41,248 nt of DNA from assembly GCA_031417495.1 (NCBI GenBank), contig JANOVQ010000057.1:1-41248 (forward strand). Reading direction: 5' to 3'. The DNA comes from Pseudomonadota bacterium (GTDB taxonomy: Bacteria; Pseudomonadota; Gammaproteobacteria; Ga0077536). Of this stretch, positions 7,714 through 25,380 are shown piece after piece (within the stretch, counting starts at the first letter, position 1; each line of letters starts with the position of its first letter). The notes beneath the pieces were generated by a model. It searched no databases, was not told the DNA's origin, and saw nothing but the letters and a program-made list of their open reading frames with translations. A program made the position numbers and the translations under genes.

Positions 7714-8535
7714 CTACGGCAACCGTCCGGCGCTGACCATGCGTCCGTTCAAAATCGTTGGTGCCAGCCAAACGACGAGATCGTCGTACTCGCAGAGCGG
7801 CGTGGCTTCGGTCGCGTTGTCCGCACAGCCATTGGTGCCGCGTGAGTAGGTGCGGGACATGAAGACGGCGTCACCGTCGGTGTTCTCTAATTCATCGGCG
7901 CCGGCGGGCGCCTGTAGGACTGCCCCATTGGTCGTGTGCGCACCGAAACCATTGCGGCCGTGGGAGAGGACCACGGCGGGTAGGCCGGTCGCGTAAGCCG
8001 CGAGTTCAAATTTGCCTTCGTGGGCGCCGTTAGTGGCCGGATTATCGCCTCGACTATGAACTTCTAAAGATCCCTTTGAACAAAGATCGAAATGTTTTGG
8101 CGACACCGAGTCTCCGTTACAAAGACCGTCCGGGTCGGGGCTCGTGAAGGCTGGGCTAGAGACGGCGTAGGTAAAGCGATTACCCCAGGCATCACCCGCG
8201 GCGACACCGAGTTCGCTTGCCGGCAGAAATCCAACCGCCACCGATCCGCCTGCGACATTGCACTTGGCGCTGGTTAGATCGAGTGGATTGAAGGGGGGAT
8301 CAGAAAGACCGTCGCCTGTCGTGTCTGGACACGGCAGGCGACGATTAGTCAACGCGTAGCCATAGAGCGCGTCTACGATCTGCTGCAGCGTTTCTTGTGT
8401 TTGTCGTCGATCACGCGCCTCAAGCTGGGTTTCAAGCGGACCAAACAAACCCGCGATCATCAGACCCAAAATGAACAGCACCACGGTGATTTCCAGCAAC
8501 GTGAAACCACGGCTGCGAGATTTATTTATCGTCAT
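7714..8535 (-). CDS. prepilin-type (class III signal peptide) pilin/pseudopilin, 273 aa
   Basis: MTINKSRSRG|FTLLEITVVLFILGLMIAG has the canonical G-FTLLE cleavage/methylation motif with Glu5. There are 6 Cys. The ATG at 8535 overlaps the upstream gene's stop by 14 nt. The ORF-track start at 8691 lies inside the upstream gene. Confidence 0.85.
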   Translation of the reverse strand: MTINKSRSRGFTLLEITVVLFILGLMIAGLFGPLETQLEARDRRQTQETLQQIVDALYGYALTNRRLPCPDTTGDGLSDPPFNPLDLTSAKCNVAGGSVAVGFLPASELGVAAGDAWGNRFTYAVSSPAFTSPDPDGLCNGDSVSPKHFDLCSKGSLEVHSRGDNPATNGAHEGKFELAAYATGLPAVVLSHGRNGFGAHTTNGAVLQAPAGADELENTDGDAVFMSRTYSRGTNGCADNATEATPLCEYDDLVVWLAPTILNGRMVSAGRLP

Positions 8536-10354
8536 CGACGTCGAGTATCCGGACACGATCATTGAACTCCGTGGACGCATCTGTTTGTTCGAAGACGTCA
8601 TCGCCGTTCGCGTTGTCGGCCTCAAAATAGTCGCCGAGGGTGGTGCCCGGTCGAACCTGCGGTACGGGTTGCTTGAGTGCCGTGCCGGCACTCAAGATCA
8701 CCGCACCGACGTAGCGCGGTACTGGTTCGGTACCGGCGCGTGACCTGTTAACGGTCAGGCAAGCAGGGTTTGCGTCGGTACATTCGCCAGCGGGTTCACT
8801 AGCCGGTGCAAAGCCAGAACCAAACGCCACGTACAGCAGACGATGCCAGTCATTCGCGACTAACCACTGCGGCAGCTCTCCCGGTGATGGATGACTGACC
8901 TCATCGATTTTGGCGTCGTCGTCGATTTCCAGATCGAAGGGCACGCCGCTAAGCTCGAAGGAATCGACAGTCATGCCGGTGACGAGCTTCAGAACGCTGG
9001 TGCTCGCCGAATTCTCCACGCCCGGCTGCTCGTCCTTTAATTGAATCTCAGCTGCCATGCCTGGCCCCAGGTTGCCAGCGTTGAGTGAGAATTTCTGGCG
9101 GCGCGTGACATCGGCGGTTGGTGGTTCGATGGTATAGGGCCAATTCGTCAACACGACAGTGTAAGTCCGACGCCAAAGCGTCCCCGCTGGGTCCGGCGCT
9201 TCACGCACGGCGCGACAGCTCAATTGGTGTCCAGCCAGTGCTTTGCACAGACCAGTCGCGGTCCATTCTCCGCCCTTGGTACCGAGCACCGCCCCGTCTG
9301 TCGGGGCGGGTATTTTGCATTCAACCAGGGTGTCGCGCAGACAGTCATCCGGCGCCGGCGCAGCGCCGGTATTGGTCACGCTACCGCTGCCAGGAATAGA
9401 CCAACGCAAACTGAAATTGGCTTCGAAGGCAAAGGAGTTGGCGTCCAAAGTATACGGATTACCAGGGTTCGTTGCGGTGCCCAATTCAATTTGACGCAAG
9501 GGCAGTAGACCTTGGCGCTGGCCGGGCTGTCCGTGAAACGCGTTGTTGGTTGGATTGGAAAACGGACTAAGCCAGGGATACCTGGTGTGCGCGTCCACAT
9601 ATCGCGCTAACGCGTTGCGCACATCGTCCAACACTCGCTTCTCGACCAGGGCCATCAACTGCTGGCGGGTGATCGCGAGAACTTGATCGTTATGCGAACC
9701 ATCGCTTTGGGTACTGAAGCATTCATCACCGGCACTCGCATTCTGTCCCTCAAGATAATCATCGATAAAGTCCGCAGTCGGATAAGGAAGCTCGGATCTT
9801 TTTTGGTCTGCGAGGGCCGCCCCCGGCGCAATCACAAGCGCCACAATGTCATCTCCCCCGGGCGCGCAGCGGTCAAGACCAAGGGTGCCGGGAACGTCAC
9901 TATTAACGGATTTTTTGGGGTTGTTGCGGTAGTTGTTCGAGACCGCGTACCACAGCCGCGCGCCACTTCCGTCGCGGGCCTCGGGGACGTCCAAGGTGTG
10001 CCAAGGAAACATTCCTGTCTCGGTTTTGCTCGATTTTGCGCACGGCGGATCTGCCTGGCCGGGATTAGTATCTGCTTGCAAATCTGGACAGGGGAGAAGA
10101 CCGGGGCCTGCTGCAAGATCGTGGATCTCTGGATTATCTGGATAGCGCACCGCATATCCCAACAAGGCCTCGCGTGCCGCGTTCAACGCGAGCTGTGTGG
10201 TGAGTTCGGCGCTTGCAGGGCCCGAGGATGCCTGGTTCAACGCGCGGAGCAGGAAATACGCACCCGCACTTAACAAGATGAGCAGGAACAGGAGCGTGAC
10301 AATGCCCTGTTGCGCCCCGCAACCAGCGCGCCTAAGGGGTCTCGCGGGGCGCAA
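8522..10354 (-). CDS. large GspK/PilX-like minor-pilin-like protein (610 aa), non-canonical leader
   Basis: N-terminus RRAGCGAQQG-IVTLLFLLILLSAGAYFLL resembles GspK/PilX_N leaders (QxG followed by a hydrophobic helix, no Glu5). It shares the ALxGYA...LPCPD module with the adjacent pilin. There are 12 Cys. TTG start. The functional call is an inference. Confidence 0.55.
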   Translation of the reverse strand: MRPARPLRRAGCGAQQGIVTLLFLLILLSAGAYFLLRALNQASSGPASAELTTQLALNAAREALLGYAVRYPDNPEIHDLAAGPGLLPCPDLQADTNPGQADPPCAKSSKTETGMFPWHTLDVPEARDGSGARLWYAVSNNYRNNPKKSVNSDVPGTLGLDRCAPGGDDIVALVIAPGAALADQKRSELPYPTADFIDDYLEGQNASAGDECFSTQSDGSHNDQVLAITRQQLMALVEKRVLDDVRNALARYVDAHTRYPWLSPFSNPTNNAFHGQPGQRQGLLPLRQIELGTATNPGNPYTLDANSFAFEANFSLRWSIPGSGSVTNTGAAPAPDDCLRDTLVECKIPAPTDGAVLGTKGGEWTATGLCKALAGHQLSCRAVREAPDPAGTLWRRTYTVVLTNWPYTIEPPTADVTRRQKFSLNAGNLGPGMAAEIQLKDEQPGVENSASTSVLKLVTGMTVDSFELSGVPFDLEIDDDAKIDEVSHPSPGELPQWLVANDWHRLLYVAFGSGFAPASEPAGECTDANPACLTVNRSRAGTEPVPRYVGAVILSAGTALKQPVPQVRPGTTLGDYFEADNANGDDVFEQTDASTEFNDRVRILDVDDDK

Positions 10355-10808
10355 TTGCAGGGGCTTCGCGCACTTCAGCGCGTATGGGATCGAAGACCTG
10401 ACCCGCCTTTACCCGACGGCCCGGCTGCGTGGCATCGAGCGCGATGTCAATCGCGGCAGGGCCGAGCCGAATCCGCGATTGCGCGGCGCCGGGAATTTGT
10501 GGATGCCGCGCATCCTGTGGCTTGCCATTCATCCATACCGTGCCTGGTCCTCGCGAGCGCGTCACGATACCGTTGACGGTCAGTGCCGGGATTGGCGGTG
10601 GTGCGGACTCTGTTTCCGCCGCCGGCAATTGCGCGATCTCACGCGGTGAAAGTGCGACCGGCGGCGGCACCTTCGCGACCACGCGGGCCGCCTCCAGACT
10701 CGCGCGCTCTTGCGGGGTAAAGAAAAGCCTGCCGAGATCGTCGGCGCGCGTGACGCTGCCTGAACACAAGCCGAGCAGGAGCCCCGCACAGAGCAGTCGC
10801 GTGCTCAC
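10332..10808 (-). CDS. secreted/periplasmic protein, possible PilP/MshK/GspC-HR analogue
   Basis: GTG at 10808 overlaps the upstream TGA (GTGA). Signal peptide VSTRLLCAGLLLGLCSGSVTRA. Pro-rich linker, then LTVNGIVTRSRGPGTVWMNGKP beta-rich segment. No diagnostic motif. Confidence 0.5.
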   Translation of the reverse strand: MSTRLLCAGLLLGLCSGSVTRADDLGRLFFTPQERASLEAARVVAKVPPPVALSPREIAQLPAAETESAPPPIPALTVNGIVTRSRGPGTVWMNGKPQDARHPQIPGAAQSRIRLGPAAIDIALDATQPGRRVKAGQVFDPIRAEVREAPAIAPRETP

Positions 10809-11428
10809 AATTGCACCTTCAGATCGCCACTCCGATCCAGCGAGAACCAGCGCAAGAGGCACTCCGCGCGCAGCTGTGCCTCGCTGGTATCGAGTGTGCT
10901 TCTAAGGCCGCCTTCGCGCGTCACTTCGCAACGCTCCACGCTGAAAAGTCCGGCGCTGTCGCGCGCCAGGGCCGTGAGTAGGCGCGTGAGATCTCCTTCG
11001 TGGAGCAGACCTAAACTGAGCTGCATGTCACTGACATTCACCTCGAACGGGCCGCTCTCGAGCGCGATCTCTGGCTCGTAGCGCTTTTGCGTGTCGATCC
11101 GATAATCGATTTTCGGGACCTGTAGGGCCGTGCCCGCGGCGCGCAACGCCTCAACCCAGCTCAGGCGCCGTTCTTGTCCAATGACGCCGCGCGCATAGAG
11201 TTGTTTGAACGCGGGGTATTGTGCCTTGATCACGCGCTCCTCATCATCCACTGCCAAATAGTGGCGACTCGCCTCGCGAAAGCGCGCGAAATTTGTCTGG
11301 TAATCGCGGTTCATTTCACGCCAGAAAAAATTGCTGGCGGTGAGCATGCCAGCGGCGAATAGCGCGCAAATCAGGAGCACGCCCAGCACGCCGCGCAGCG
11401 CACGCCATTCAACCTGCCTGTTGCGCAC
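10805..11428 (-). CDS. bitopic PilO/GspM/MshJ-like assembly protein
   Basis: Short cytoplasmic N-terminus, one TM (LRGVLGVLLICALFAAGMLTA), then a helical region and an alpha/beta C-terminal domain. Its position follows the GspL-like gene. Start is uncertain: GTG 11428 is preferred, and GTG 11506 would overlap the upstream gene by 98 nt. Confidence 0.5.
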   Translation of the reverse strand: MRNRQVEWRALRGVLGVLLICALFAAGMLTASNFFWREMNRDYQTNFARFREASRHYLAVDDEERVIKAQYPAFKQLYARGVIGQERRLSWVEALRAAGTALQVPKIDYRIDTQKRYEPEIALESGPFEVNVSDMQLSLGLLHEGDLTRLLTALARDSAGLFSVERCEVTREGGLRSTLDTSEAQLRAECLLRWFSLDRSGDLKVQL

Positions 11429-12995
11429 GCGCGACCCCCAGAATGATGCGTAAAGTGAAGGCCGCCGTTTGGCCTGCCGAGTTAGCGTTGGCGGAACCGG
11501 CGACACTGGCCGTTGGACTCAAATCGAGTGGGTAGCGTTTCACTTCCACTGCCTGCACCTGCGCCGTGGCGCGCAGCCGCGCGGCGAGGGCATCGATCGT
11601 CGCCATCGCCAGGCGATAGTCGCCAGCAAAGTCCGCGAGATGCGCTTCCAGATCAGTAATTGCATAGAACGCGTAGGCGGAGGAGCGCTCGATTTGCGGC
11701 TTGCTGTCGGTTTCGCGCGGGTGCGCCGGATCGCGATTGGGATCGAAGGCGCGGTACCAGGACAATTTATCCACCGTCACTTGCGGCGTCTCGCTGAGCG
11801 CCGCGCCTAATATTTGCCAAGAAGGCACCGGCGAGGCTTTTAGCGTTTCTAACTGGGTCGCGGCGCTGACCGCAGCCTTGATCGCTGCTGCGTCGACTAC
11901 GGTGGGTGGCAGGCCACGTCGCGCGAGCGCAAAGCGCTCCTGATAAAACGTCGCTTTCTGGGCCGCGTCCTGACTCTGCTGCTGCAGACCCATGGCATCG
12001 ATGAAACGCAGTGCGCTCCAGCCGGCGCTGCCCACTAACAATAACAAGCTAGCGACAAGCAGCGCGATTTTCGCTTGATGCAGTTTAAAGAAACGCGTCT
12101 CGTGGCGCTGCGCGTAATGGGCGGACGGGGTGGCAGTCAACAGCAACTGCGCAAAAATCGCGTCGCTAAAGGGTGATGCCACAGTCGCCGGCAAACCGAG
12201 GCGCTGCGCCAGTTCGGCGTTATCCACCAGAAAGTACTGCTCGCCCTCCGTGTTATGACAGTGCTCGGCCAGTTCTTCCAGCAACGCACCGTGACTCAGA
12301 ATGTAGATCGCAAGCGGACTCTCGCGCGAGACCAGGGCCAGGCTGTTGAGATAGCGGCGAAGTTTGGCCAACTCGGCCAGGACGTACGTGGCATAGGGCA
12401 CCGAGCCGAGCCGCGGCATCTGGGCGAGACGGCTGATCTTCAACTGGCCATCGCGATAGAAGGTCTGACGCAAACCGCTGACCTGCTGCACGCTGATAAA
12501 CAGCACGTTGCTGGCCTGCGCTTTGATTTTAGGTAGCAGGCCCGCGCTCAGCACCGGCAGCGAATAGATGCCGATCAACGGGATCCCGTGTTTGACCAGC
12601 TCCTCGATCCAGGGCGAGAGGCTCTCCGGTTTAGTCAGCGCGGTCAGCAGTACGCGATCGTCGCGCCGACCCTCGCGTTCGCGGCCCTGATCAAGGGCTA
12701 GACAATAAGGCGTGCCGCGAAACATGCGCGCGTATTTGCGGCCAAGCACCGAGGCGCGATCCCTCCCGCGCACATGCGGAATAGTGTCTTGTCGATATTC
12801 CTCCTCCACCACATCAACCAGCACATAGAGTGGACTCGGCGGCGCACTCTCCAAATACGTCGCAAAGGCGGCCCAGCCACTTTCGCCAGCCGTGAACTCA
12901 TAGGCGTTTTGCAGGTGCCGTCCCGCGCCGAGAAAGAGCAACGCGCGATCCGCCGCAATCAGCAGGACTCTGGCCTCACCTTGCAGTGCCTTCAT
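11409..12995 (-). CDS. bitopic GspL/MshI (PilM-PilN fusion)-like assembly protein, 528 aa
   Basis: ATG 12995 has AGGAA 6 nt upstream. About 300 aa of cytoplasmic domain, a single TM (IALLVASLLLLVGSAGWSAL), a Gln-rich helix and a periplasmic domain of about 170 aa. Called from architecture and position only. Confidence 0.5.
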   Translation of the reverse strand: MKALQGEARVLLIAADRALLFLGAGRHLQNAYEFTAGESGWAAFATYLESAPPSPLYVLVDVVEEEYRQDTIPHVRGRDRASVLGRKYARMFRGTPYCLALDQGREREGRRDDRVLLTALTKPESLSPWIEELVKHGIPLIGIYSLPVLSAGLLPKIKAQASNVLFISVQQVSGLRQTFYRDGQLKISRLAQMPRLGSVPYATYVLAELAKLRRYLNSLALVSRESPLAIYILSHGALLEELAEHCHNTEGEQYFLVDNAELAQRLGLPATVASPFSDAIFAQLLLTATPSAHYAQRHETRFFKLHQAKIALLVASLLLLVGSAGWSALRFIDAMGLQQQSQDAAQKATFYQERFALARRGLPPTVVDAAAIKAAVSAATQLETLKASPVPSWQILGAALSETPQVTVDKLSWYRAFDPNRDPAHPRETDSKPQIERSSAYAFYAITDLEAHLADFAGDYRLAMATIDALAARLRATAQVQAVEVKRYPLDLSPTASVAGSANANSAGQTAAFTLRIILGVARAQQAG

Positions 12996-13046
12996 CTTGA
13001 TTCCTGTACGCTGACTAAACCCTGGCGGGCTTTCTTCTGCGTTTCG

Positions 13047-14252
13047 TTAAAACTTAATCTTCGTGAACAAGTCATAGATCGGCCCCAAAATCGACGACAT
13101 AATCCACAGCACAATCGCGCCCAGCAGGATGGTCACCAGCGGCAGAATCAAGGTCTGTAGTTTAGTGACCGATTCGCGCACGTCCCGCGTGAAGAAATAC
13201 GTGACGTTATTCAGTGCATCCTCCAGGGCGCCAGTGTTTTCGCCGACACGCAACATGCGTATTACCAAGGGCGGAAACAAGCCCGTCGCGGCAAAGCTCG
13301 CGCTGATCCCGCCGCCATCCGCGATCATTCGACCGGCGTCGCGCAGCGCCACGCGAATGGCGCGATTGTCGGCGACTTCTTCGCCGGTGCGAATACATTC
13401 AAGCACCGTAATGCCCGAGGTGTACATGATGGAGAACACGCTGCACACCCGGGTCACGACGATTTTCCGCAAAATAGGACCGACCAGGGGCAGGCGCAGC
13501 TTGAAGGCATCAAATTTCTGCGCAAACTCCGGATTAACGCGCAGCGCGACGAGCAGCACGCTCACCACCAACGGTGGCACGCTCACCACCACATACCAGT
13601 AATTCGCGAGCAGGCTTGAAGTTGCGATAAGCGCGCGGGTCTGTAGCGGCAGGACCTGCCCCATCGTATGCAGGAACGACACCAACTGAGGCACGACATA
13701 AATCATCAGGAAAATCAGCACACCGAAGATCACCACCGAGACAAGCGCGGGATACATCAGAAGTTTTTGCGTGTACGAGGTCTGCTCGTCCTGCCACTTG
13801 AGGTTGTCGATAATTTTTTGCATGACCTCCGATAAACGCCCGCTCTGCTCTCCGGCGCGAATCAGGCTGACGAATACCGAATCGAAAACCCCGGGGAAAT
13901 CGCTCATCGCGCCCGACAAATTCTTGCCTCCTTCAATCGCCTCGATCATGGCCGAGGTGACCTCCCGCAAGCGCCGGTTATCGAGGGTGTCGCGCAAATC
14001 TCCCAGCCCTTCGATGATGGGAACGCCGGCGCGCACCAGATGCTCAAGGTGAAAACAAAAAGTTATCAGATCGACTGTGCGCACACCGCCCCGGGTGACC
14101 GCGCGCGTGCGCGAACGCTGTACCGTGAAATTGAGGAGATCGAGCCCCATGCGGCTCAGGCGCACTTCCAGATCAGCCGGATTAAGTGCCTCGACCTTGC
14201 CCCGCGAGACGTGTCCCAACTGATCCATCGCCTTGTAGCGAAAGGCGTCCAT
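13047..14252 (-). CDS. type II secretion/type IV pilus platform protein (GspF/PilC/MshG family)
   Basis: 401 aa. Duplicated T2SSF-type cytoplasmic domains and three TM segments. N-terminus MDAFRYKAMDQLGHVSRGKVEA is typical of the family. Confidence 0.92.
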   Translation of the reverse strand: MDAFRYKAMDQLGHVSRGKVEALNPADLEVRLSRMGLDLLNFTVQRSRTRAVTRGGVRTVDLITFCFHLEHLVRAGVPIIEGLGDLRDTLDNRRLREVTSAMIEAIEGGKNLSGAMSDFPGVFDSVFVSLIRAGEQSGRLSEVMQKIIDNLKWQDEQTSYTQKLLMYPALVSVVIFGVLIFLMIYVVPQLVSFLHTMGQVLPLQTRALIATSSLLANYWYVVVSVPPLVVSVLLVALRVNPEFAQKFDAFKLRLPLVGPILRKIVVTRVCSVFSIMYTSGITVLECIRTGEEVADNRAIRVALRDAGRMIADGGGISASFAATGLFPPLVIRMLRVGENTGALEDALNNVTYFFTRDVRESVTKLQTLILPLVTILLGAIVLWIMSSILGPIYDLFTKIKF

Positions 14253-14259
14253 CAGCTTC

Positions 14260-15966
14260 TCAGTTCAGCCGGTCCGTGAGGTCGACCACGCGCGAGATCT
14301 CGTCGATGGTGGTCGTGCCGTCAAGGACGCGGCGCAGCGCGACATCAGCGAGGGCCACGAAGCCTTTGCCACGGGCCTGCTGGTGCAGCTCGCGGGCGGT
14401 GGCGCCGCGTGCGATCAATTCGTCCAGACCATGATCGAACTTCAACAGTTCCATCACTGCGGTACGACCTTCGTAGCCCTGATGTTCGGTATGCCGGAAC
14501 TCTTCCGCGACACGGAAGATCAGAGTGGTGGCGTCGTGGCTTAAGCCGAGGATGTGGCGTTCGATGGTGGACGGTGCATACGCTTCACGACAGGCATCGC
14601 GCAAGCGGCGCACCAGGCGCTGGGCCAGTATCCCAATCAGATTGCCGGCCATCACTTCCGGGCGCACGCCCATATCGATCAGGCGAGGAATCGAGCCGAG
14701 CGCCGAGTTGGCATGCAGGGTCGAAAAAACCTGGTGGCCGGTCATTGCGGCCCGAAAGGCCATCGCCGCGGTTTCGGAGTCGCGAATTTCTCCGACCAGG
14801 ATGATGTCGGGATCCTGGCGCAGCATGGAGCGGATCCCGCTCGCGAAATCGAGGCGCACGGCGTCGTTAAGCGAAGTCTGGCGAATCATCCCCATCGGAT
14901 ATTCCACCGGATCCTCCAAGGTCATGATGTTCACTGTCTCGGTGTTCAGATGATTGAGCAGACTGTAGAGCGTGGTGGTCTTGCCGCTCCCAGTCGGACC
15001 CGTGACCAGCAATAAGCCTTCCGGTCGGGCGACCATGAGTTTCAACAAATGCAGGTTTTCCACTTCGAGCCCGAGATCCTCGATCGGCACGATTCCTTTC
15101 TGACGATCAAGCACGCGCAGCACGATGTTCTCGCCGTGTACGGTGGGAATGGTGGACACGCGAAAATCGATCGGACGACCCGTCAGCGACAGGGTAATGC
15201 GGCCGTCCTGCGGCGCGCGGGTCTCGGCGATATCCATGCCAGACATGACTTTGAGCCGTACGGCCAGTGCCGACCAGTAGTTCTTATGCAGGCTGCGGAC
15301 CTGCCGCAACACGCCGTCAATGCGATATCTAAAGCGCAGAAAACCTTCTTCGGGCTCAAAATGAATATCCGAGGCGCCACGTTTTACGGCGTCCGCGAGT
15401 AATGCATTCACGAGCCGCACGACCGGCTGACTGTATTCCTGGCTATCTGCATCGAGGCTTTCGTAATCGATCTCGCCGGTTTCGATTTCCTGCAGGATGC
15501 CGTCCACCGACAGCTCGAAGCCATAGAACTGATCGATCGCCTTCTCGATCTCGGCTTCGCCCGCCATCAGCGGCACGATCTCGGTGTCGCCGCCGATCAA
15601 CGCAGTGATCTGATCGAGCGCGACGACATTGAAAGTATCAGCCATCGCCAAGGTCAGGCGCTTGCGATTGGCCTCAAAGGTGAGCGGCAGAATATGAAAA
15701 CGCCGCGCGAGGTCTTTGGGAATCATGCCGATCGCTTCCCCATCGACCACGACTTTGCTCAGGTCCGCCTTCTGTTGCCCGAGCGCGCCGCCCAGCACAT
15801 CAAGGATCACTGCTTCCGTCGCAAAACCGAGGCGGACCAGAATCTTGCCGAGATGATCGCGGTTGCGCTTCTGCTCGATCAGCGCAATTCGCACCTGATC
15901 CTGGCTGACCACGCCCTTCTGGACCAACAATTCGCCAATGCGAAGACTCTTCTTGAGCGTACTCAT
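14260..15966 (-). CDS. mshE: GspE/PilB-family assembly ATPase, MshE-like with N-terminal c-di-GMP-binding (MshEN) motifs
   Basis: Walker A GPTGSGKTTT, Asp box MTLEDPVEY, Walker B DPDIILVGEIRD, His box TGHQVFSTLHAN. N-terminal RIGELLVQKGVVSQDQVRIALIEQ-KRNRD-HLGKILVRLGFATEAVILDVLGGA. The ATG at 15966 lies 16 nt after the upstream stop. Confidence 0.93.
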   Translation of the reverse strand: MSTLKKSLRIGELLVQKGVVSQDQVRIALIEQKRNRDHLGKILVRLGFATEAVILDVLGGALGQQKADLSKVVVDGEAIGMIPKDLARRFHILPLTFEANRKRLTLAMADTFNVVALDQITALIGGDTEIVPLMAGEAEIEKAIDQFYGFELSVDGILQEIETGEIDYESLDADSQEYSQPVVRLVNALLADAVKRGASDIHFEPEEGFLRFRYRIDGVLRQVRSLHKNYWSALAVRLKVMSGMDIAETRAPQDGRITLSLTGRPIDFRVSTIPTVHGENIVLRVLDRQKGIVPIEDLGLEVENLHLLKLMVARPEGLLLVTGPTGSGKTTTLYSLLNHLNTETVNIMTLEDPVEYPMGMIRQTSLNDAVRLDFASGIRSMLRQDPDIILVGEIRDSETAAMAFRAAMTGHQVFSTLHANSALGSIPRLIDMGVRPEVMAGNLIGILAQRLVRRLRDACREAYAPSTIERHILGLSHDATTLIFRVAEEFRHTEHQGYEGRTAVMELLKFDHGLDELIARGATARELHQQARGKGFVALADVALRRVLDGTTTIDEISRVVDLTDRLN

Positions 15967-15982
15967 CGCTAAGCGTTTGCGC

Positions 15983-17344
15983 TCAGGGCGCCGCGAGCGC
16001 GGTGATCCGCGCGGCGACCACCGCGCCATCGAAGTTAGTCGTCGCGCCGTGTAAGGCGGCAGCCTGCCGGTAATAATCGAGCGCCGCCTTGCGCTGACCG
16101 AGTTGATCAAGGCTCACGGCCAGATTGAACACGTAGTCGGCATTGCGCGGTTGTCCACGGAAGGCTGCGAAGTAGGCCTGTTGGGCATCGCCCCAACGCT
16201 GTTCGCGGGCATACCAATTGCCGAGCGCGAAATGCAGGTAGGGCGCTTCGAGGCCACGGTCAAGCAGCAATTTCAGTTTGGATTCGGTGGCGTGCGCGCC
16301 ACGACCACCTTCAATCAGAAAGAGCGCGGCGGTGGCGATGGGGTGATCAGGCGCATCGCTCAACACCTCGGCATAGTAGCGATGCGCTTCACGCAAGCGA
16401 TTTTCGGCAAGCGCGATCGCGCCGAGCCCAAGGAGCGCGTCGCGTTGTTGTGGATGGGTCTTCAACACCGCCAGATACGCGCGCTTGGCGCGCACCAGGT
16501 CGCCATTCTCGAACGCGTGATACGCCAGCGTTAACTGGCGCTGTGCAGGGCCCACGCCGTGCGCGCTATGGGCAATGTGCAGGTCGCCGTTGCGCATTTC
16601 GAAATCTTGCGGCGGCGCCGTTGTGGCAACGTCGCGAGGAGTTGGCGCACTCGGCGCGGCCTCGAGCGCGGCGGCGACGGTCGCCATGTCAGCGGGCACA
16701 CTGGGGGCGACATCCGATTTTTCGGCCACCGCGGCCGCCGGCGCCGGTGGCGGTAAGACGACCACGGGCAGCGCCGGGGTGGGAATGGTCGGGACGGGTC
16801 CTGTAGCAATGCCGTGCTCAACCCCCAACGCCACCCGCGGCGACGGCACGACCAACGGTGGTGGGGTCTGCAGAAAGGCGTGATATCCCAGCCACCCGAG
16901 GCTGCCGCACGTAACCAGCAACGCGGCACTCAGGCCCAGCGCGAGTGGCTGCAACCGGCGGCGCTGGGTCGCCGCGAAGACGGTTCGCGCAGTGACCAGC
17001 TCGGGGCGACTTAAGCTGCCACCCGCGTGCACTTCGGGGCTGCTCGGGGGATGCACGAAAGCCACCTCATCGGCGATCGTCAGATCCGCGAGAGGCTGGA
17101 ACCGCCCGCTCGCGCTTAAGCGCTGGCTGATATTGCCGGACCCGGGCAGCGCGTCGCTGCGGCGTGCCGGACCCGCGCTTGGAGTGAGTTGTTCCACCAG
17201 CGGTTCGAGACGTAGTTGCTCGGCGGTGGTCGCGAACCCCCCCGATGTGAAGTCTTCGCTCGCGGCGGGCGCGCCGGGAGTGCGCGCCGCAGCCGCCTTT
17301 TTATCGGCTTCCGCTTTGCGCAAGGCATCCATCAGCAAGCTCAT
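15983..17344 (-). CDS. bitopic TPR protein, MshN-like with GspB-like N-terminus
   Basis: N-terminus MSLLMDALRKAEADKK, one TM (LALGLSAALLVTCGSLGWLGY), a Pro/Ala-rich linker and C-terminal TPR repeats (AYHAFENGDLVRAKRAYLAVL..., ALGNWYAREQRWGDAQQAY...). Confidence 0.7.
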   Translation of the reverse strand: MSLLMDALRKAEADKKAAAARTPGAPAASEDFTSGGFATTAEQLRLEPLVEQLTPSAGPARRSDALPGSGNISQRLSASGRFQPLADLTIADEVAFVHPPSSPEVHAGGSLSRPELVTARTVFAATQRRRLQPLALGLSAALLVTCGSLGWLGYHAFLQTPPPLVVPSPRVALGVEHGIATGPVPTIPTPALPVVVLPPPAPAAAVAEKSDVAPSVPADMATVAAALEAAPSAPTPRDVATTAPPQDFEMRNGDLHIAHSAHGVGPAQRQLTLAYHAFENGDLVRAKRAYLAVLKTHPQQRDALLGLGAIALAENRLREAHRYYAEVLSDAPDHPIATAALFLIEGGRGAHATESKLKLLLDRGLEAPYLHFALGNWYAREQRWGDAQQAYFAAFRGQPRNADYVFNLAVSLDQLGQRKAALDYYRQAAALHGATTNFDGAVVAARITALAAP

Positions 17345-17363
17345 GTCAGTGGGCCATGCTCAT

Positions 17364-17530
17364 CTAGCAGCCTGTCGGACTTAGGAAGAATCTGCTGCGG
17401 CGCTGGGACAGCGGTCCATATTCGCGCGCATGTTCGTTAAATAGAACCACTATTCGCCTCACATGCGCGCCAATCTGGCCTCGCTCTCCCAACGCCTCGC
17501 GACGATTCCCTAAGTCCGAAAGGCTGCTAG
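17364..17530. mobile_element. 167-bp MITE-like non-autonomous element
   Basis: 22-bp terminal inverted repeats: CTAGCAGCCTGTCGGACTTAGG (17364-17385) and CCTAAGTCCGAAAGGCTGCTAG (17509-17530), 21/22 complementary. Nested 10-bp inverted repeat GCGCGCATGT/ACATGCGCGC (17424-17433 / 17461-17470). No ORF. A second partial copy is at 25381-25444. Confidence 0.6.
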
Positions 17531-19179
17531 GGTGTCGCAACGTCTTTACTCAAATACTGTTCGTAATCTTTGAGATCGGTCTCGATATTGGGATCGCCCA
17601 CAATCACCGGGCGCAGAAATATCACGAGTTCCGTTTTTCGATTATTCGCTTCTTTCACCTTAAAAAAAGTGTCGCCGATAAACGGAATGCGCGAGAGGCC
17701 GGGCACTTCGCGATTGCCGTTGTTCACCTCATCCTGCATCAACCCTCCCAACACGCCGACCTGCCCGTTCACGAGTTTGAGCACGGATTCCATCTCGCGG
17801 GTGCGGATGATGGGCACTGTGTTGGTGATGTCGCCGCCATCGACGCCATTCAGCTGACTGGCGAGGCGCGGACCCGGATCGACCGCATCGCCAATCTTCT
17901 GCGAAATGGTCGGTCGTACGGTCAACGTAATTTCCTGGTTCGCCGAGATTTGTGGCGTGACCGCCATCACCAGGCCGACTGGCACCGAATGGATCTGGGT
18001 CTCGACAAACGAGCGGCCTTGCGCATTTAAGGTGGAATCACTGGTGGTCACGTGGAGCGTGAAATAGACCAGTTCCTCGACCACTTTGAGCAACGCGGTC
18101 TGGTTATTGATCACCATCAGGCGCGGACTCGACAGCACTTTGGTGTCGCCGAATTCGCGCAGCAGCCGCACGGTGGTTTCGACTAACTTGCCGCTGGCGT
18201 CGGGATCACGGTAGCCGAAAGTGAACGAGGAAACTGCGTTATCGATCACGCCATCAGTCACTGCACCGAGGAGCGACTGATTGAAACCAAAACCGGCTTT
18301 GTTCGCATCAATCAGAATTCGCCAATCAACCCCCGATTGATATTGATCATTCAGCGAGACCTCCACGATGGTCGCCTCGATCAGCACCTGGCGCCGCGCA
18401 TTGGTAAGTACCTGATCGACAAATTTCTGAATGAGTTCGTGTTGCTTGGTGTTGGCTTTCACAGAGATCACGCCGGCTTCCGCATTGACCAGTAGATTCT
18501 GCGATTGCAACTTGCCGTCGCGCGCGGGCGCGGCTTCGCCGAGGATGGTGAGAATGTTGGTGGTGAGGGTTTCCCAGAAACGATTGCTCGATTTCGAGTT
18601 CACATGGGTAGAAGAGCTGTTGGCGCCCGCGCTGCTCCCAGTTTTACCGCCGCTCTGATCCTGCGCGCCGCCTTCGCCAGTGGTGGCAACCTCGGTGGCC
18701 ACACTGACGGTAGTGTCGGTATCGCGCGCGAGATTGACGTAGCCCACTTCGTAGGTGCGGAAAAACGGCGCGTCGGGTTCAACCAGAATCGTGCTGCCTT
18801 CGAGCGTGTAACGCAGGTTCGCCTGGCGCGCGACGCGATCGAGAATCTGTGGCAGGGTCTGGTCGATGGCATTAAGCGTGACGGCGCCGGGAATATCGCC
18901 TGCGATGTCCACATTTATCCTGGCATCGCGCGCGAGCGCGAACAGCAACTCGCGCACCGGCACCTCATTTACCACCACCGTGTAGCGCTCGGCATCGGGA
19001 ATAGGCTGCGGCGGCGGCAGGTAAGTCGCCTGAGGCACCACCTTGGGAATTCCTGGATCGGCCTGCACCGTCGCCGCCTGGGTGAGATGCCCAGGGGACA
19101 CCGGTGGTGGGGCGGGTTTCATTCCTGCGCAACTGGTGAGCCCCAGCAGCGCCATTATGGAGAGCGTGATGCGCAGCAT
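17527..19179 (-). CDS. mshL: secretin, MshL-type lipoprotein
   Basis: ATG 19179 has AAGGA 7 nt upstream. Lipoprotein signal MLRITLSIMALLGLTSC. N-terminal secretin-N domains. C-terminal secretin domain (VLSSPRLMVINNQTA..., VPGLSRIPFIGDTFF...TELVIFLRP). Confidence 0.92.
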   Translation of the reverse strand: MLRITLSIMALLGLTSCAGMKPAPPPVSPGHLTQAATVQADPGIPKVVPQATYLPPPQPIPDAERYTVVVNEVPVRELLFALARDARINVDIAGDIPGAVTLNAIDQTLPQILDRVARQANLRYTLEGSTILVEPDAPFFRTYEVGYVNLARDTDTTVSVATEVATTGEGGAQDQSGGKTGSSAGANSSSTHVNSKSSNRFWETLTTNILTILGEAAPARDGKLQSQNLLVNAEAGVISVKANTKQHELIQKFVDQVLTNARRQVLIEATIVEVSLNDQYQSGVDWRILIDANKAGFGFNQSLLGAVTDGVIDNAVSSFTFGYRDPDASGKLVETTVRLLREFGDTKVLSSPRLMVINNQTALLKVVEELVYFTLHVTTSDSTLNAQGRSFVETQIHSVPVGLVMAVTPQISANQEITLTVRPTISQKIGDAVDPGPRLASQLNGVDGGDITNTVPIIRTREMESVLKLVNGQVGVLGGLMQDEVNNGNREVPGLSRIPFIGDTFFKVKEANNRKTELVIFLRPVIVGDPNIETDLKDYEQYLSKDVATP

Positions 19180-19189
19180 AAGCGTCCTT

Positions 19190-20353
19190 TCAGTCCACCC
19201 CAAACAGCAAGACCTCACCGGGCATGTCCGCGAGGCGCGCCAGGTGGTTGAACGCGTTCTGCAGATGCGAAGAATCCACCGCCTGATCGCCGGGCGCCAA
19301 CGGGTTGTCGAAGGTGGCTAGGGTCAGCGCCAGCGCCGTGAGATCGGTATAGCGCATGTTCGACACGGCTGCCCTTGCCGGGGCGTGCGCTGGGACGACC
19401 GTCGGTCGCGGGGCGTTGGCTTCAATCATGGCCAGCGCTACCGGCGCCGGCCGCGGCAGCGCGTAGTGCCAGCCAGCACCAGCCGCCAGCAGCAGACCTG
19501 TGAGCCACGCCAGGCGCCTCCAGCCAGCAGTGGCACGGGTCTCCAGTGCAAACTCGCTGTCCTGCGCGGCGAGTGTCACGTGCCGGGGTAACACCCGTGG
19601 CGCGCCACTCGAATAGGCCGCGAGGAGCGCCTTATCGGCGAGGACATTGATGCGCCGTAAAAGCCCTTGTGAGGAACGCGTCAGCACGCGGATCGCGCGC
19701 CGGGTGAACAACTCCGGTCCGCGATAGCCGCTGGCCTGCAGCCGGGCGTTGAGATAATCCCGAATCTCCCCGGCGACAAATGGCGCCAACTTAAAACGAT
19801 AAGTGATGCGTTCGTTCAGCTGGCGGATTTCGTGCTGGGCAAGTTTCGTATCGAGCTCGGGCTGTCCAAACAACACTATCTGCAGCAGTTTGTCCTGCGC
19901 AGTTTCGAGGTTACTGAGCAGCCGTAATTCTTCGAGCGTCGCGAGCGGCATGCCCTGCGCCTCTTCGACGAACATCACCACCCGTCGATTGTCCGCATGT
20001 TTTGCGAGCAGGTAGTCATGTAGCGCGTGCATCACCATGGGTTTGGTCGCGCCGGGCGGGAGCGCCAATTTCAGTTCGTAGGCGATCGCGGGCAGGATTT
20101 CGTCGGGCCCGAGATTGGGATTAGCCAAATAGATCATCTCGCAGTTGGCGGGGATCTCGCGGGCGAGCATGCGGCACAGCATGGTTTTGCCACTGCCAAC
20201 TTCGCCCACCACTTTCACAATGCCTTCGCCGCGACTAATCGCATAAATCAGCGCATCCAACACCGCGCCGCGATTGCCCCCTGGAAAGAAGAGTTCTGGA
20301 TCGGGGGTGATCTTGAAGGGCGATTTATGGAATCCAAAATGCTGACAGTACAT
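19190..20353 (-). CDS. ExeA/GspA/MshM-like AAA ATPase with C-terminal TM and periplasmic tail
   Basis: MYCQHFGFHKSPFKITPDPELFF N-terminus. Walker A GEVGSGKT. Walker B VVMFVEEAQ. TM LAWLTGLLLAAGAGW followed by about 100 aa. GGAAGGAAA SD. Confidence 0.88.
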   Translation of the reverse strand: MYCQHFGFHKSPFKITPDPELFFPGGNRGAVLDALIYAISRGEGIVKVVGEVGSGKTMLCRMLAREIPANCEMIYLANPNLGPDEILPAIAYELKLALPPGATKPMVMHALHDYLLAKHADNRRVVMFVEEAQGMPLATLEELRLLSNLETAQDKLLQIVLFGQPELDTKLAQHEIRQLNERITYRFKLAPFVAGEIRDYLNARLQASGYRGPELFTRRAIRVLTRSSQGLLRRINVLADKALLAAYSSGAPRVLPRHVTLAAQDSEFALETRATAGWRRLAWLTGLLLAAGAGWHYALPRPAPVALAMIEANAPRPTVVPAHAPARAAVSNMRYTDLTALALTLATFDNPLAPGDQAVDSSHLQNAFNHLARLADMPGEVLLFGVD

Positions 20354-20374: not shown

Positions 20375-21808
20375 CTACGGCTCGACGGGCGGCTGCATGC
20401 CGAGTCGTGCAAGTTTGCTATAGAGCGTGGTGCGATTAACGCCGAGCAGGCGTGCCGCCCGGCTCAAATTGCCATGCGCCTGCGCCAGCGCAGCGCTGAT
20501 GAGATGGCGTTCGAACTCGGCGACTGCGGTTTCCAGGCGGAAGCCCGGCTGCGCCAGGCGTTGCGCGAAGGCAGTGGTCTCCGCTTGCGAGGTGGTGTCG
20601 TCGCGCGCGAGCGTCACGCTCGGCTCGAGTTCGAGCGCCAACTCATTCACTTCCACCAGCTGTCCGCCAAATTTGGTGCCCAGGCGCACCACAATATTGC
20701 GCAGTTCACGCACATTGCCCGGGAAGGTATACGTCGCGAGTAAGGCGGCCGCCGCCGGCGCGAGCTCGAAGGGGGTAATGGTGCCGGCGTAGAGCGTGAG
20801 GAAATGCGCCAGTAAGATTTGCCAGTCGTCCGCGCGCGCGCGCAAAGGCGGCACGCTGATCGTGAGTACGCTCAGGCGATGAAACAAATCGGCACGGAAG
20901 TGTCCGCCGCGCGTAGCCTCCCGCAAGTCGCGGTTGGTCGCGGCGATAATGCGCGCGGTGGCCTGCCGCGGCTGGGTTTCGCCGAGCCGGTAGTACTCGC
21001 CGTTCTCCAGTACCCGCAGTAATTTAGCTTGCAGCGCCAGCGGCATTTCACCGACCTCATCCAGAAACAAAGTCCCGTGGCCGACTTCTTCAAGCAGCCC
21101 CGGACGCAAGCGGTCGGCACCGGTGTAGGCCCCTTTGGCCGCGCCGAACAATTGCGATTCGAGCAGCTCTGGGCTGAACGCGGCACAGTTCAAAGACATC
21201 AATGGGTGAGGTGCGCGCTGGCCTTCACGATGCAAGCAAGCCGCGACGAGTTCCTTGCCAACCCCCGACTCACCCTCGATCAACACCGGGAACGGCGAAT
21301 TGGCGAAGGGTTTAACCAGCGCCCGTAAGGCCTGCATGCCGGCACTTTCGCCCAGTAATACTTCGGTGGTTTGCGCGCTTGGCGCGCGCCGTGCGGTTTC
21401 CGCTTCGAGGATCTGCAGCTGATGATGCAAACGGGCGCGTAAGACTTCCGCCGTGCAGGGCTTGGGCAGGAAATCGACCGCGCCTAAGGTGAGTGCGTGT
21501 TGAATATTGCGGCGGTCACTCTGCCCGGAAAGTACCAGCACGCGGGTGAGTTGACGGGTCGCGACCAATTCGGAAATCAGCGCATAGCCCTCGTCCGGAG
21601 TATGCGGAGTCGGCGGGAGGCCGAGATCGATCAGGGCCAGGGCGGGCGGATGCGGCAGACTGGCGAGCACCCGATGCGCCTGCTCGCGGGTACCGGCGGT
21701 GTGTACGTCGAATTCATCAGAGAGCGTGAATTTCAGGGCATCAACGATCAGCGGATCGTCATCCACCAGCATCACGCAAGCGCGCAGCGGATCAATTCTC
21801 GCGGACAT
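20375..21808 (-). CDS. sigma-54-dependent response regulator (NtrC family enhancer-binding protein)
   Basis: Receiver domain (VMLVDDDPL..., LIDLGLPP). AAA+ domain with GESGVGKE and a GAYTGA (GAFTGA-type) loop. C-terminal Fis-type HTH NLSRAARLLGVNRTTLYSKL. The ATG at 21808 overlaps the metF stop by 17 nt. Alternative starts are at 21772 and 21874. Confidence 0.9.
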   Translation of the reverse strand: MSARIDPLRACVMLVDDDPLIVDALKFTLSDEFDVHTAGTREQAHRVLASLPHPPALALIDLGLPPTPHTPDEGYALISELVATRQLTRVLVLSGQSDRRNIQHALTLGAVDFLPKPCTAEVLRARLHHQLQILEAETARRAPSAQTTEVLLGESAGMQALRALVKPFANSPFPVLIEGESGVGKELVAACLHREGQRAPHPLMSLNCAAFSPELLESQLFGAAKGAYTGADRLRPGLLEEVGHGTLFLDEVGEMPLALQAKLLRVLENGEYYRLGETQPRQATARIIAATNRDLREATRGGHFRADLFHRLSVLTISVPPLRARADDWQILLAHFLTLYAGTITPFELAPAAAALLATYTFPGNVRELRNIVVRLGTKFGGQLVEVNELALELEPSVTLARDDTTSQAETTAFAQRLAQPGFRLETAVAEFERHLISAALAQAHGNLSRAARLLGVNRTTLYSKLARLGMQPPVEP

Positions 21809-25368: not shown

Positions 25369-25380
25369 CTTAATTGTATC

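Follow-up and report, generated by a model that had tools for sequence, protein, structure and literature searches.

A conserved, rearranged gene cluster in a gammaproteobacterium probably encodes the core of an MSHA-related type IV pilus machine

The window, meaning the whole stretch of DNA analyzed, comprises 41,248 nt of contig JANOVQ010000057.1 (assembly GCA_031417495.1) from a Pseudomonadota bacterium of the gammaproteobacterial lineage Ga0077536. It contains an intact cluster of ten genes and an eleventh conserved gene encoding a sigma-54 response regulator. All lie on the minus strand. The ten ORFs listed in an earlier sequence-only reading were all found, and a base-by-base check reproduced the junctions it quoted. 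At 10805-10808 the reverse complement reads GTGA, in which start and stop overlap. The stop of the 610-aa gene (8522) and the ATG of the pilin gene (8535) overlap by 14 nt, and the stop of the 158-aa gene (10332) and the TTG of the 610-aa gene (10354) by 23 nt. Between the AAA gene and the secretin ATG at 19179 lie 10 nt (19180-19189). The product lengths given for the secretin (550 aa), the ATPase (568 aa), the 158-aa protein and the prepilin (273 aa) also matched. The ATPase ORF starts with ATG at 15966 and the 158-aa gene with GTG at 10808. The PilO-like gene probably starts with GTG at 11428, in which case its product has 207 aa and the overlap is 20 nt. None of the eleven ORFs is disrupted, and they show translational coupling. 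A GGDEF-EAL gene is located nearby.

The description of the genes as packed with overlaps or very short gaps was accurate for these junctions but not for the secretin and TPR genes, which are 182 nt apart (17345-17526). This gap is occupied by a palindromic repeat of approximately 160 nt, not assigned to a strand, with a predicted RNA fold of -103 kcal/mol (z=-9.85). One arm recurs once more at 25380-25445 with 95% identity. In the closest relative (L001) only about 24 nt separate the two genes. The palindrome is an insertion and no part of the ancestral operon.

Five of the predicted proteins are homologous by sequence to MshM, MshL, MshN, MshE and MshG, and Pfam and NCBIfam searches bore out the parts originally assigned to them. 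The AAA ATPase (19190-20353, 387 aa; Pfam AAA_22, E=9.5e-27) is 44% identical to Aeromonas MshM. It scores 187 bits against TIGR03015, below the cut-off of 324.5, and has a C-terminal extension missing from Aeromonas MshM (295 aa). The lipoprotein secretin (17527-19179, 550 aa; Pfam Secretin and Secretin_N_2) is of the MshL type. It scores 243.0 bits against TIGR02519 MshL (cut-off 250.2), compared to 150 bits for GspD (cut-off 351) and 105 for PilQ (cut-off 284). Its lipobox is LTSC, and a lipobox was present in 26 of 29 family members scanned. The MshN-like protein (15983-17344, 453 aa; Pfam TPR_2, TPR_19 and TPR_16) has an N-terminal MSLLMDALRKAE motif, one membrane helix (131-149), a Pro/Ala-rich linker and periplasmic TPR repeats. 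The N-terminal motif is common to the Aeromonas and Legionella homologues, and the family HMM matches the Legionella homologue with E=8e-8. A mixture of T2SS GspA/GspB logic with MSH parts had been proposed for the AAA and TPR proteins. This was not upheld, as their family HMMs match Aeromonas MshM (309 bits) and MshN (E=2e-16); by homology both are assigned as native MSH components.

The assembly ATPase (14260-15966, 568 aa) matches Pfam T2SSE with 405 bits and has an N-terminal c-di-GMP-binding MshEN domain. It passes the c-di-GMP motif model NF053729 (55.8 bits, cut-off 38), and two tandem motifs, RIGELLVQKGVVSQDQVRIALIEQ and HLGKILVRLGFATEAVILDVL, can be made out in its sequence. The predicted c-di-GMP-binding MshEN motif is intact. 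The ATPase is below the cut-off for GspE (515, cut-off 630) and for the PilB equivalogs. The family branched apart from MshE, GspE and PilB, equidistant at 35 to 40% identity to each, in a small neighbor-joining tree whose deep nodes have 20-58% bootstrap support. The inner-membrane platform (13047-14252, 401 aa) is of the GspF/PilC/MshG type, matches Pfam T2SSF twice (E=2.6e-46) and is 27-28% identical to Aeromonas MshG. It scores 307 bits against TIGR02120, below the cut-off of 424.

Four cluster proteins, the 528-aa and 610-aa proteins among them, had no Pfam or NCBIfam family match. The 528-aa protein (11409-12995) is a putative PilM-PilN fusion comprising a cytoplasmic actin-like domain, a membrane helix and a periplasmic alpha/beta domain. 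Its AlphaFold2 model (pLDDT 85.9) was matched by Foldseek to PilM (5eoy, E=1.7e-11) and to cyto-EpsL/GspL (1yf5, 4pht and 1w97, E 8e-8 to 2e-6), with target-normalized TM-scores of 0.63-0.67. The predicted PilM/GspL fold is thus well supported, in agreement with the GspL/MshI-like label first given to this protein. Its profile matched 2,788 representatives of 50%-identity clusters, 1,209 of them with E<=1e-30. The 207-aa bitopic membrane protein (10805-11428) is a putative PilO/GspM/MshJ-like component by position and topology. An N-terminal membrane helix and a helical stretch are followed by a conserved C-terminal domain with an invariant LHEGD and two Cys. No match was found in Pfam, a PDB profile search or hhalign. 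In the fetched loci its gene always follows the PilM-PilN gene. The 158-aa protein (10332-10808) is predicted to be secreted to the periplasm; a signal peptide and a conserved LGRLFxTPxER precede a small beta-rich domain, TVNGxVxRSxG..W.NG...LKxGQ. It has no detectable similarity to Aeromonas MshK or Pfam families. From position and topology we infer the roles of both proteins, with the 158-aa protein as a candidate link to the secretin in the manner of MshK, PilP or the GspC HR domain.

The prepilin (7714-8535, 273 aa) has a canonical class III signal, MTINKSRSRG/FTLLE, and six Cys. It matches Pfam N_methyl (E=7e-7) and TIGR02532. The family consensus keeps LPCPD, DaWgn and ShGrng, and the family HMM matches MSH pilins of Aeromonas and Legionella. 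The 610-aa protein (8522-10354) had been called GspK/PilX-like and does have an N-terminus of this type lacking Glu5, with a conserved QxG followed by a hydrophobic segment, a nearly invariant Gly17 and a helix over residues 14-70 in the AlphaFold2 model (pLDDT 87.5). The globular part of the model had no PDB fold match. Residues ~34-140 are 29% identical to the prepilin, including the ALxGYA...LPCPD motif, and by sequence the two proteins are judged to be paralogues. Relatives of the 610-aa protein range from 366 to 1,159 aa. It is 59% identical to its L001 counterpart while the ATPase is 94% identical; overall, identity to L001 is 59-67% for the pilin-like proteins and 92-94% for the motor. 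By these values the rate of evolution is much higher in the pilin-like proteins than in the motor. The 610-aa protein is a candidate tip subunit or adhesin.

The sigma-54-dependent response regulator (20375-21808) comprises a receiver, an AAA+ sigma-54 interaction domain and a Fis-type HTH (Pfam Response_reg, Sigma54_activat and HTH_8). It scores 334 bits for NtrC and 325 bits for PrsR in NCBIfam, neither reaching the cut-off. The gene and the metF stop overlap by 17 nt. The AAA gene follows 21 nt downstream in the same orientation, and therefore the upstream flank is more than the unrelated genes previously described; the same gene is also directly upstream in L004, L006, L008, L009, L047, L050, L060 and L061, and this conserved regulator is part of the cluster. 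About 27 related loci have, beside a sensor kinase, a second conserved pilin with a sigma-54 promoter. A -24/-12 motif lies at a fixed distance upstream of this pilin in 14 of the 27, compared to only 3 of 45 loci, at scattered positions, for the first pilin. A sigma-54 promoter search inside the window gave nothing convincing. The sensor kinase and second pilin module is absent from the present contig, and therefore the proposal of a minimal pilin set is only partly true. It describes this contig, but the 610-aa protein is also pilin-like and about 27 relatives have the second pilin.

Of 45 loci retrieved from other genomes, about 40 repeat the ten-gene order, which is also present in loci L047, L050, L060, L061 and L062, distant relatives among them. 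The full order, regulator-M-L-N-E-G-I-like-J-like-K-like-big pilin-pilin, occurs in approximately 40 species-level genomes, mostly MAGs. This arrangement is far beyond chance. Dozens of bacteria, most of them uncultured, share the layout, which is therefore a real uncharacterized variant and no one-off oddity. The system is abundant in Gallionellaceae, Nitrosomonadales and uncultured sediment and groundwater Gammaproteobacteria, and loci of Sideroxydans and Gallionella MAGs (L033, L040) have the present layout. The ATPase of the window's gammaproteobacterial lineage is about 60% identical to those of betaproteobacterial members. Emerson et al. (2013; PMC3770913) mentioned, without data, that the MSH homologues of Sideroxydans lithotrophicus ES-1 and Gallionella capsiferriformans ES-2 show "a significant gene rearrangement" relative to V. 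cholerae and P. tunicata, with function unknown. The ES-1 and ES-2 layout is likely identical to the present one. The novelty is therefore lower than had been implied.

The gene order is, as had been stated, unlike canonical MSHA. The loci of Aeromonas caviae and Legionella adelaidensis run I-J-K-L-M-N-E(-G-F), with the multi-pilin block after F in the former and before I in the latter. Here M-L-N-E-G precedes the I/J/K-like genes, with M and L swapped and the N-E-G block kept. MshM, L, N, E and G homologues are common to this cluster and MSHA (Vibrio, Aeromonas Bfp and Pseudoalteromonas; MSH class, Denise et al. 2019), as are a nearby GGDEF-EAL gene and a single locus without a prepilin peptidase (PMC6668835) or retraction ATPase. 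No prepilin peptidase, PilT or MshF homologue was found in the 41-kb window, as originally noted. Other features differ from MSHA. MshF is absent, and no sequence similarity to MSH proteins, including MshI, MshJ and MshK, was detected for the I/J/K-like proteins or the 610-aa protein. The PilM and PilN parts form one protein of 528 aa, an architecture also seen in GspL and MshI, whereas the Aeromonas locus that was examined has them as separate ORFs. The pilin-like proteins are two large ones of 273 and 610 aa instead of an MshBACD/OPQ set, identity of the ATPase to MshE is only 38% and its branch lies outside the Aeromonas-Legionella MshE pair, and the sigma-54 regulator is built into the locus. 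The cluster also resembles type IVa pili of the Pseudomonas aeruginosa PilS-PilR/sigma-54 type. The alignment protein has a predicted PilM-like fold, and in relatives a sensor kinase and sigma-54 regulator flank the machine genes and the second pilin has its -24/-12 promoter at a fixed distance. Unlike that system, the PilB and PilQ models score far under cut-off, separate PilM, N, O and P genes, PilT/PilU, PilC/PilY1 and a FimU-PilVWXE set are absent, and the kinase and second pilin are missing from the present contig.

The cluster is a variant of a known machine, the MSH-related pilus, and no categorically new system. It is probably the core operon of a type IV pilus machine of a distinct, uncharacterized MSHA-related lineage. 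A T2SS-like secretion machine, in which a short periplasmic pseudopilus of the 273-aa pilin capped by the GspK-like 610-aa protein pushes a substrate through the secretin, is unlikely. It would account for the GspL-type fusion with its matches to cyto-GspL structures, the GspM-sized bitopic protein that follows, the cap without Glu5, the missing retraction ATPase, the AAA extension beyond MshM (somewhat like GspA/ExeA) and the GspE and GspF equivalogs being top-scoring in NCBIfam, though both under cut-off; a motor and platform of the GspE/GspF type and a secretin are shared with T2SS as well. Such a machine would, however, lack GspC, the G-K pseudopilin set (G-J included) and an evident substrate, and no candidate substrate gene is conserved around short-form loci. 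The secretin reaches less than half of the GspD cut-off, the sub-threshold ATPase has an MshEN motif typical of MshE-type pilus motors, and the pilin-like proteins diverge fast, as expected of surface-exposed parts.

It is still less probable that the locus is an incomplete or silent remnant from which the kinase, the second pilin and the ABC module, all present in many relatives, have disappeared and which no longer builds a functional filament. The kinase, both 257-aa proteins, the second pilin and the ABC ATPase had no tblastn match in the 41-kb window, and the inserted palindrome parts the secretin gene from the TPR gene. Against this, the eleven coupled ORFs are all intact, and the short form without the kinase and second-pilin module recurs in the independent lineages L060 and L062, which argues for a viable configuration. 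The missing module could also sit elsewhere in the genome, because the window is a single contig, and in L004 the kinase-like genes do not come until ~9 kb downstream of the first pilin. A function beyond simple adhesion, such as DNA uptake, mineral contact or electron transfer in lithotrophs, is very improbable. The taxa in which the system is abundant and the unusually large, Cys-rich pilins would fit it, but the neighborhood of the cluster has no conserved competence genes, cytochromes or other genes specific to a function, and the sequences give no specific pointer to any of these functions.

The pilus reading is carried by the homology or fold of the parts and by the conserved gene order, and we infer its steps from MSHA, T4aP and T2SS. 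The separation of the ATPase from MshE in the tree, the missing sequence similarity of the I/J/K-like and 610-aa proteins to MSH proteins and the unconvincing promoter search in the window count against it. The two pilin-like proteins would enter the inner membrane and be cut after Gly by a prepilin peptidase whose gene, as is the case for all MSH loci, would be at another place in the genome. They would be polymerized by the MshG-like platform together with the hexameric ATPase of MshE type. Pilus assembly by MshE of Vibrio cholerae is dependent on c-di-GMP, and the N-terminal MshEN domain would impose the same dependence here. The PilM-PilN fusion and the 207-aa protein may form an inner-membrane alignment complex coupling the ATPase to the periplasm, with the 158-aa protein probably bridging to the secretin. 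The secretin would be the outer-membrane pore, its assembly helped by the MshM-like and MshN-like proteins. In the most likely case the 610-aa protein primes assembly and is placed at the tip of the pilus, where its large, fast-evolving domain would be exposed as an adhesin. The 273-aa pilin would form the fiber or part of it, and the second pilin of the relatives may be their main fiber subunit. Expression would be controlled by the adjacent regulator, analogous to PilR. The likely role of the machine is c-di-GMP-controlled attachment to a surface or particle.

Ten co-oriented open reading frames (ORFs) on the minus strand, spanning positions 7714-20353 of the window, make up the type IV filament cluster. 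Four gene junctions quoted in the sequence-only reading were verified base by base. These were a gap of 10 nt between the AAA ATPase and secretin genes (19180-19189), a GTGA start/stop overlap (10805-10808), a 23 nt overlap between the genes for the 158-aa and 610-aa proteins (10332-10354) and a 14 nt overlap between the genes for the 610-aa protein (8522-10354) and the prepilin (8522-8535). Inspection of start codons placed the start of the 550-aa secretin, which has the lipobox LTSC, at ATG 19179 and that of the 568-aa ATPase at ATG 15966. The 158-aa periplasmic protein starts with GTG at 10808 and the 273-aa prepilin (7714-8535) with ATG at 8535, its leader being MTINKSRSRG/FTLLE. GTG at 11428 is the most likely start of the PilO-like gene, giving a protein of 207 aa and an overlap of 20 nt. 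A sigma-54-dependent response regulator gene (20375-21808, minus strand) ends 21 nt before the AAA gene and is the eleventh gene of the cluster. It overlaps the metF stop by 17 nt (21792-21808). ridA is the next gene after the prepilin, referred to here as the first pilin. The ten-gene cluster was confirmed as an observation and its interpretation was upheld in part only. Close packing did not extend throughout, as 182 nt separate the secretin and TPR genes.

This spacer (17345-17526) is filled by a near-perfect palindrome of approximately 160 nt (RNA fold -103 kcal/mol, z=-9.85). A second copy of one 66 nt palindrome arm, with 95% identity, is located at 25380-25445 between a GGDEF-EAL gene and tkt. 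The same spot in the closest relative, locus L001, measures only about 24 nt. The palindrome looks like a REP/MITE-like repeat inserted within the operon, where it could influence polarity or the processing of transcripts. Three ORFs outside the cluster had no Pfam match: 99-686 (minus strand, 195 aa), 1073-1639 (minus strand, 188 aa) and 30032-31066 (plus strand, 344 aa). The 188-aa ORF lies opposite a Rieske oxygenase gene, which it overlaps, and may be a shadow ORF. tRNA and Rfam searches of the window gave no match. The GC content is even along the window (0.56-0.67). On the basis of this evenness, together with an identical metF-regulator overlap of 17 nt in relative L061 (1241-1257), a horizontally acquired genomic island was rejected.

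Five cluster proteins were recognised by Pfam/NCBIfam, as AAA_22, secretin, TPR, T2SSE with MshEN, and T2SSF. They were compared with two reference loci. The mannose-sensitive hemagglutinin (MSHA, Bfp) locus of Aeromonas caviae (L046) has the order H-I-I1-PilN-J-K-L-M-N-E-G-F-pilins, and the MSH locus on a Legionella adelaidensis replicon (L052) has the order pilins-I-PilN-J-K-MshL-AAA-N-E. The secretin contains Secretin_N_2 and scored best by far on the MshL model TIGR02519 (243.0 bits, just under the curated cut-off of 250.2), compared to 105 on the PilQ model TIGR02515 (cut-off 284). It shares 25% identity with Aeromonas MshL. The platform protein carries T2SSF twice and is 27-28% identical to Aeromonas MshG. 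The AAA ATPase is 44% identical to Aeromonas MshM across approximately 280 residues, and its family HMM scored 309 bits against this protein and 267 bits against its Legionella homologue. The family HMM of the TPR protein matched MshN (E=2e-16), and the TPR protein and both MshN references have the same N-terminal motif, MS(L/V)(L/I)-x-x-L, along with a single membrane helix and the same arrangement of TPRs. Because of these HMM matches and the shared motif and topology, the AAA/TPR pair is regarded as a native MshM/MshN pair and not as an imported GspA/GspB module. The ATPase passed the MshE-related c-di-GMP motif model NF053729 (55.8 bits, cut-off 38), and two 24-residue c-di-GMP motifs with a five-residue spacer can be read directly at its N-terminus.

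In a neighbour-joining tree of the ATPases (547 columns, 100 bootstraps, PilT-like YggR as outgroup), the cluster-family ATPases, 56-89% identical to the window ATPase, formed their own group. For the window ATPase, identity was 38% with MshE, 35-39% with GspE-type ATPases and 37% with PilB, and exceeded 40% with no reference. The Aeromonas and Legionella MshE proteins paired at 100% bootstrap without the cluster-family ATPases, which were also apart from GspE/XcpR/EtpE and from PilB/HofB, the deep nodes having bootstraps of only 20-58%. As the reference set was small, the tree shows that the family is not nested among the MshE proteins sampled and fixes no sister group. The gene order, checked against L046 and L052, does differ from canonical MSHA as claimed. 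Here it runs M-L-N-E-G-I-like-J-like-K-like-big pilin-pilin (the letters denoting Msh-like proteins), whereas canonical loci run mshIJKLMNEGF with mshBACD and mshOPQ. There are two pilin-like genes and no MshF in the window, in contrast to the multi-pilin operon of canonical MSH. The cluster also differs from the type IVa pilus, as its ATPase scored 500.7 on the PilB model TIGR02538 (cut-off 675.65), its PilM and PilN parts are fused, and no PilT was found in the window. No prepilin peptidase (Peptidase_A24) was matched among the window ORFs scanned against Pfam; MSH loci have been reported as single loci without this enzyme and as carrying the MshEN motif (PMC6668835). The cluster is placed nearest to MSH, as a divergent variant, by its M/L/N/E/G homologues, N-E-G order, MshL-type secretin and MshEN motif, and by being a single locus that lacks a peptidase gene.

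The 528-, 207-, 158- and 610-aa proteins had no Pfam or NCBIfam match. The AlphaFold2 model of the 528-aa protein (pLDDT 85.9) shows a cytoplasmic domain of actin-like fold, joined by a long membrane-spanning helix to an alpha/beta domain in the periplasm. Foldseek matched it to PilM 5eoy (E=1.7e-11) and to the cytoplasmic EpsL/GspL structures 1yf5, 4pht and 1w97 (E 8e-8 to 2e-6, target-normalised TM-scores 0.63-0.67). Based on this modelled architecture and these matches the protein is predicted to be a PilM-PilN fusion of the GspL/MshI kind. No significant match came from PDB profile searches with the 528-aa and 207-aa families, in which the GspL periplasmic domain 5hl8 ranked first (E=0.8). 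All hhalign comparisons of the family profiles with single Aeromonas or Legionella MshI, MshI1, PilN-domain, MshJ and MshK proteins, and with a Legionella 563-aa pilin, were non-significant. The 207-aa protein is bitopic with a conserved C-terminal domain, and its gene always comes after the 528-aa gene; this position and topology suggest a PilO/GspM/MshJ role. A signal peptide, the conserved motif LGRLFxTPxER and a small domain rich in beta structure were recognised in the 158-aa protein, which is a putative link to the secretin of the MshK/PilP type. When all members of the 207-aa and 158-aa families were scanned against Pfam at E<=1, no family recurred.

At the start of the 610-aa protein is a conserved QxG, after which comes a hydrophobic stretch that lacks Glu5. 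Its AlphaFold2 model (pLDDT 87.5) has a helix at 14-70, mainly Ile18-Tyr71 of the presumed mature protein. The alpha-1 helix of type IV pilins is approximately 53 residues long, and the modelled helix is close to this length. The 610-aa protein shares 29% identity with the prepilin over residues ~34-140, where an ALxGYA...LPCPD motif is common to both proteins. The pilin-type N-terminus, helix and prepilin similarity therefore identify the 610-aa protein as a pilin-like paralogue of the GspK/PilX type. No PDB fold match was found for its large globular part. Foldseek with the whole model gave no fold match (best E=3e-3, TM-score <0.1), and matches to lectin- or adhesin-like beta-sandwiches were weak and not significant. 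Compared to L001, the 610-aa protein and the prepilin are 59% and 67% identical while the ATPase, secretin and platform are 92-94% identical. This fast divergence relative to the motor parts supports surface exposure of the pilin-like proteins. Homologues of the 610-aa protein vary from 366 to 1,159 aa. In one subclade the homologue is nearly doubled, at 990-1,159 aa (L020, 9971-13450; L021, 6537-9785; L024, 9944-12916; L025, 9971-13327; L038, 9938-12922). These enlarged forms align with the window protein across the N-terminal ~270 residues only, as would fit a tip domain that is modular and exchangeable.

The single 610-aa protein, used as query in a genome scan, returned no confirmed relatives. 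When an alignment of its homologues was used as query against one genome per GTDB species, 45 loci were returned, nearly all from metagenome-assembled genomes (MAGs). The carriers were uncultured Gammaproteobacteria, Gallionella, Sideroxydans and Sulfuricella, Halieaceae and Cellvibrionales, and Magnetococcales. tblastn with the window proteins recovered the order M-L-N-E-G-528-207-158-610-pilin in approximately 40 of the 45 loci, and the sigma-54 regulator was directly upstream wherever the fetched locus extended far enough. The same eleven-gene order was present in a distant member, L060. The 610-aa family comprises only 67 clusters at 90% identity. The 528-aa family profile matched 2,788 representatives of 50%-identity clusters (1,209 at E<=1e-30, mostly full length), and the betaproteobacterial branch alone gave 1,241 matches. 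All names attached to family members were "hypothetical protein", and six of the eleven cluster proteins were unnamed or had a generic pilin tag only. The cluster is not a unique T2SS/MSH hybrid. It belongs to a lineage of MSH-related type IV pili that is re-ordered, widespread and uncharacterised. The MSH clusters of Sideroxydans ES-1 and Gallionella ES-2 have been remarked on as rearranged compared to those of V. cholerae and P. tunicata, with function unknown (Emerson et al., 2013; PMC3770913), and a 2023 study of Gallionellaceae MAGs labelled such genes simply as an MSHA pilin cluster (PMC10734482). The window layout is present in MAG loci of Sideroxydans and Gallionella (L033, L040), and therefore the 2013 remark very probably refers to the same variant. 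The literature search found no paper describing the accessory proteins, big pilin, regulator or second-pilin module.

Since metF overlaps the regulator gene in the window and in L061, this housekeeping folate gene may be co-transcribed with the pilus regulator. Three further loci, L010, L011 and L024, also have metF next to the cluster. The secretin gene directly follows metF in these three loci (L010, 673-3199; L011, 366-2892), and no MshM-like AAA gene or regulator was detected between the two. This subclade may do without the AAA protein or encode it at another place.

Approximately 27 loci carry a further module directly after the first pilin or within a few kb of it (12638-17576 in L047; 15320-20174 in L061). 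It consists of a membrane sensor kinase of ~560 aa on the opposite strand, two proteins of ~250 aa without any family match, one of them polytopic, a second pilin and an ABC ATPase. The second pilin is ~230 aa with a nearly invariant N-terminus, GFTLVEIAIVLVIIGLLLGG. A TGGCAC-N5-TTGCA-type (sigma-54 -24/-12) motif was found at a fixed distance from the Gly codon (-76 to -94 nt) in 14 of 27 second pilins, compared to only 3 of 45 first pilins, where positions were scattered. The module resembles a circuit of the PilS/PilR style in control of a probable major pilin. No part of it was found in the window, and the short form without it also occurs in L060 and L062. The description "minimal pilin set" therefore holds for this contig but not for the system, since relatives carry a second pilin. 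The sigma-54 promoter consensus matched 16 times in the window compared to 25 expected by chance. A site upstream of the pilin (8807-8822) was rejected as a sigma-54 promoter as it was not conserved in relatives.

A gene for a PAS-PAS-GGDEF-EAL protein (23176-25368, plus strand) is divergently oriented and lies upstream of metF, approximately 0.5 kb from it and 1.4 kb from the regulator gene. In canonical MSHA loci, as in the Aeromonas locus L046, the first gene is mshH, which encodes a GGDEF-EAL protein. Given the c-di-GMP-binding motif of the ATPase, the window gene may be functionally linked to the cluster. Sub-threshold XrtA/PEP-CTERM matches were obtained for the AAA protein (19190-20353), the TPR protein (15983-17344), the regulator and the L047 kinase (12638-14332). 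A PEP-CTERM accessory family was the top match for the AAA protein and for the kinase. Scores were 187 for TIGR03015 (cut-off 324.5), 325 for PrsR (502.6), 38.6 for PrsT (312) and 46 for PrsK on the kinase (300). Membership of a PEP-CTERM system was rejected as all scores were well below the curated cut-offs. The matches hint at shared ancestry of regulatory and accessory genes.

The best reading is that the cluster would encode a c-di-GMP-gated, sigma-54-regulated type IV pilus, in which the 610-aa Glu5-less pilin would prime assembly and form an adhesive tip. The main rival is a T2SS-like secretion role. In its favour are the fused GspL-like protein, a cap resembling GspK and the lack of a retraction ATPase. 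Against it, GspC is missing (no T2SSC match) and the secretin is not of the GspD type (149.8 on TIGR02517, cut-off 351.35). The G-J pseudopilins are also missing, with only two pilin-like proteins present and GspG at 37 bits compared to a cut-off of 88.85; the ATPase scored 515.5 on the GspE model TIGR02533 (cut-off 630.25), and no substrate gene is conserved near the cluster. A broader proposal, considered unlikely, is that the cluster represents a separate and widespread type IV filament class that belongs to neither MSH nor T2SS but is a sister of both. Such a class would have alignment-complex proteins of its own and a filament of unusually large pilins, with a pilin-adhesin of 600-1,100 aa as its cap, and would serve c-di-GMP-/sigma-54-controlled attachment to particles or minerals, or export of some substrate, in uncultured lithotrophic and sediment Proteobacteria.

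The re-ordered pilus lineage does not overturn current understanding, as its core machinery and likely regulation are of known kinds. Type IV filament classification rests mostly on a few model organisms, and defining the lineage would allow better annotation of environmental genomes, including those of iron oxidisers, wastewater bacteria and groundwater Gammaproteobacteria. It would also provide a natural test of the fewest pilins needed to start a filament, one Glu5-less tip pilin compared to a four-protein priming complex, and would yield a new family of large pilin-borne adhesin domains without a known fold.
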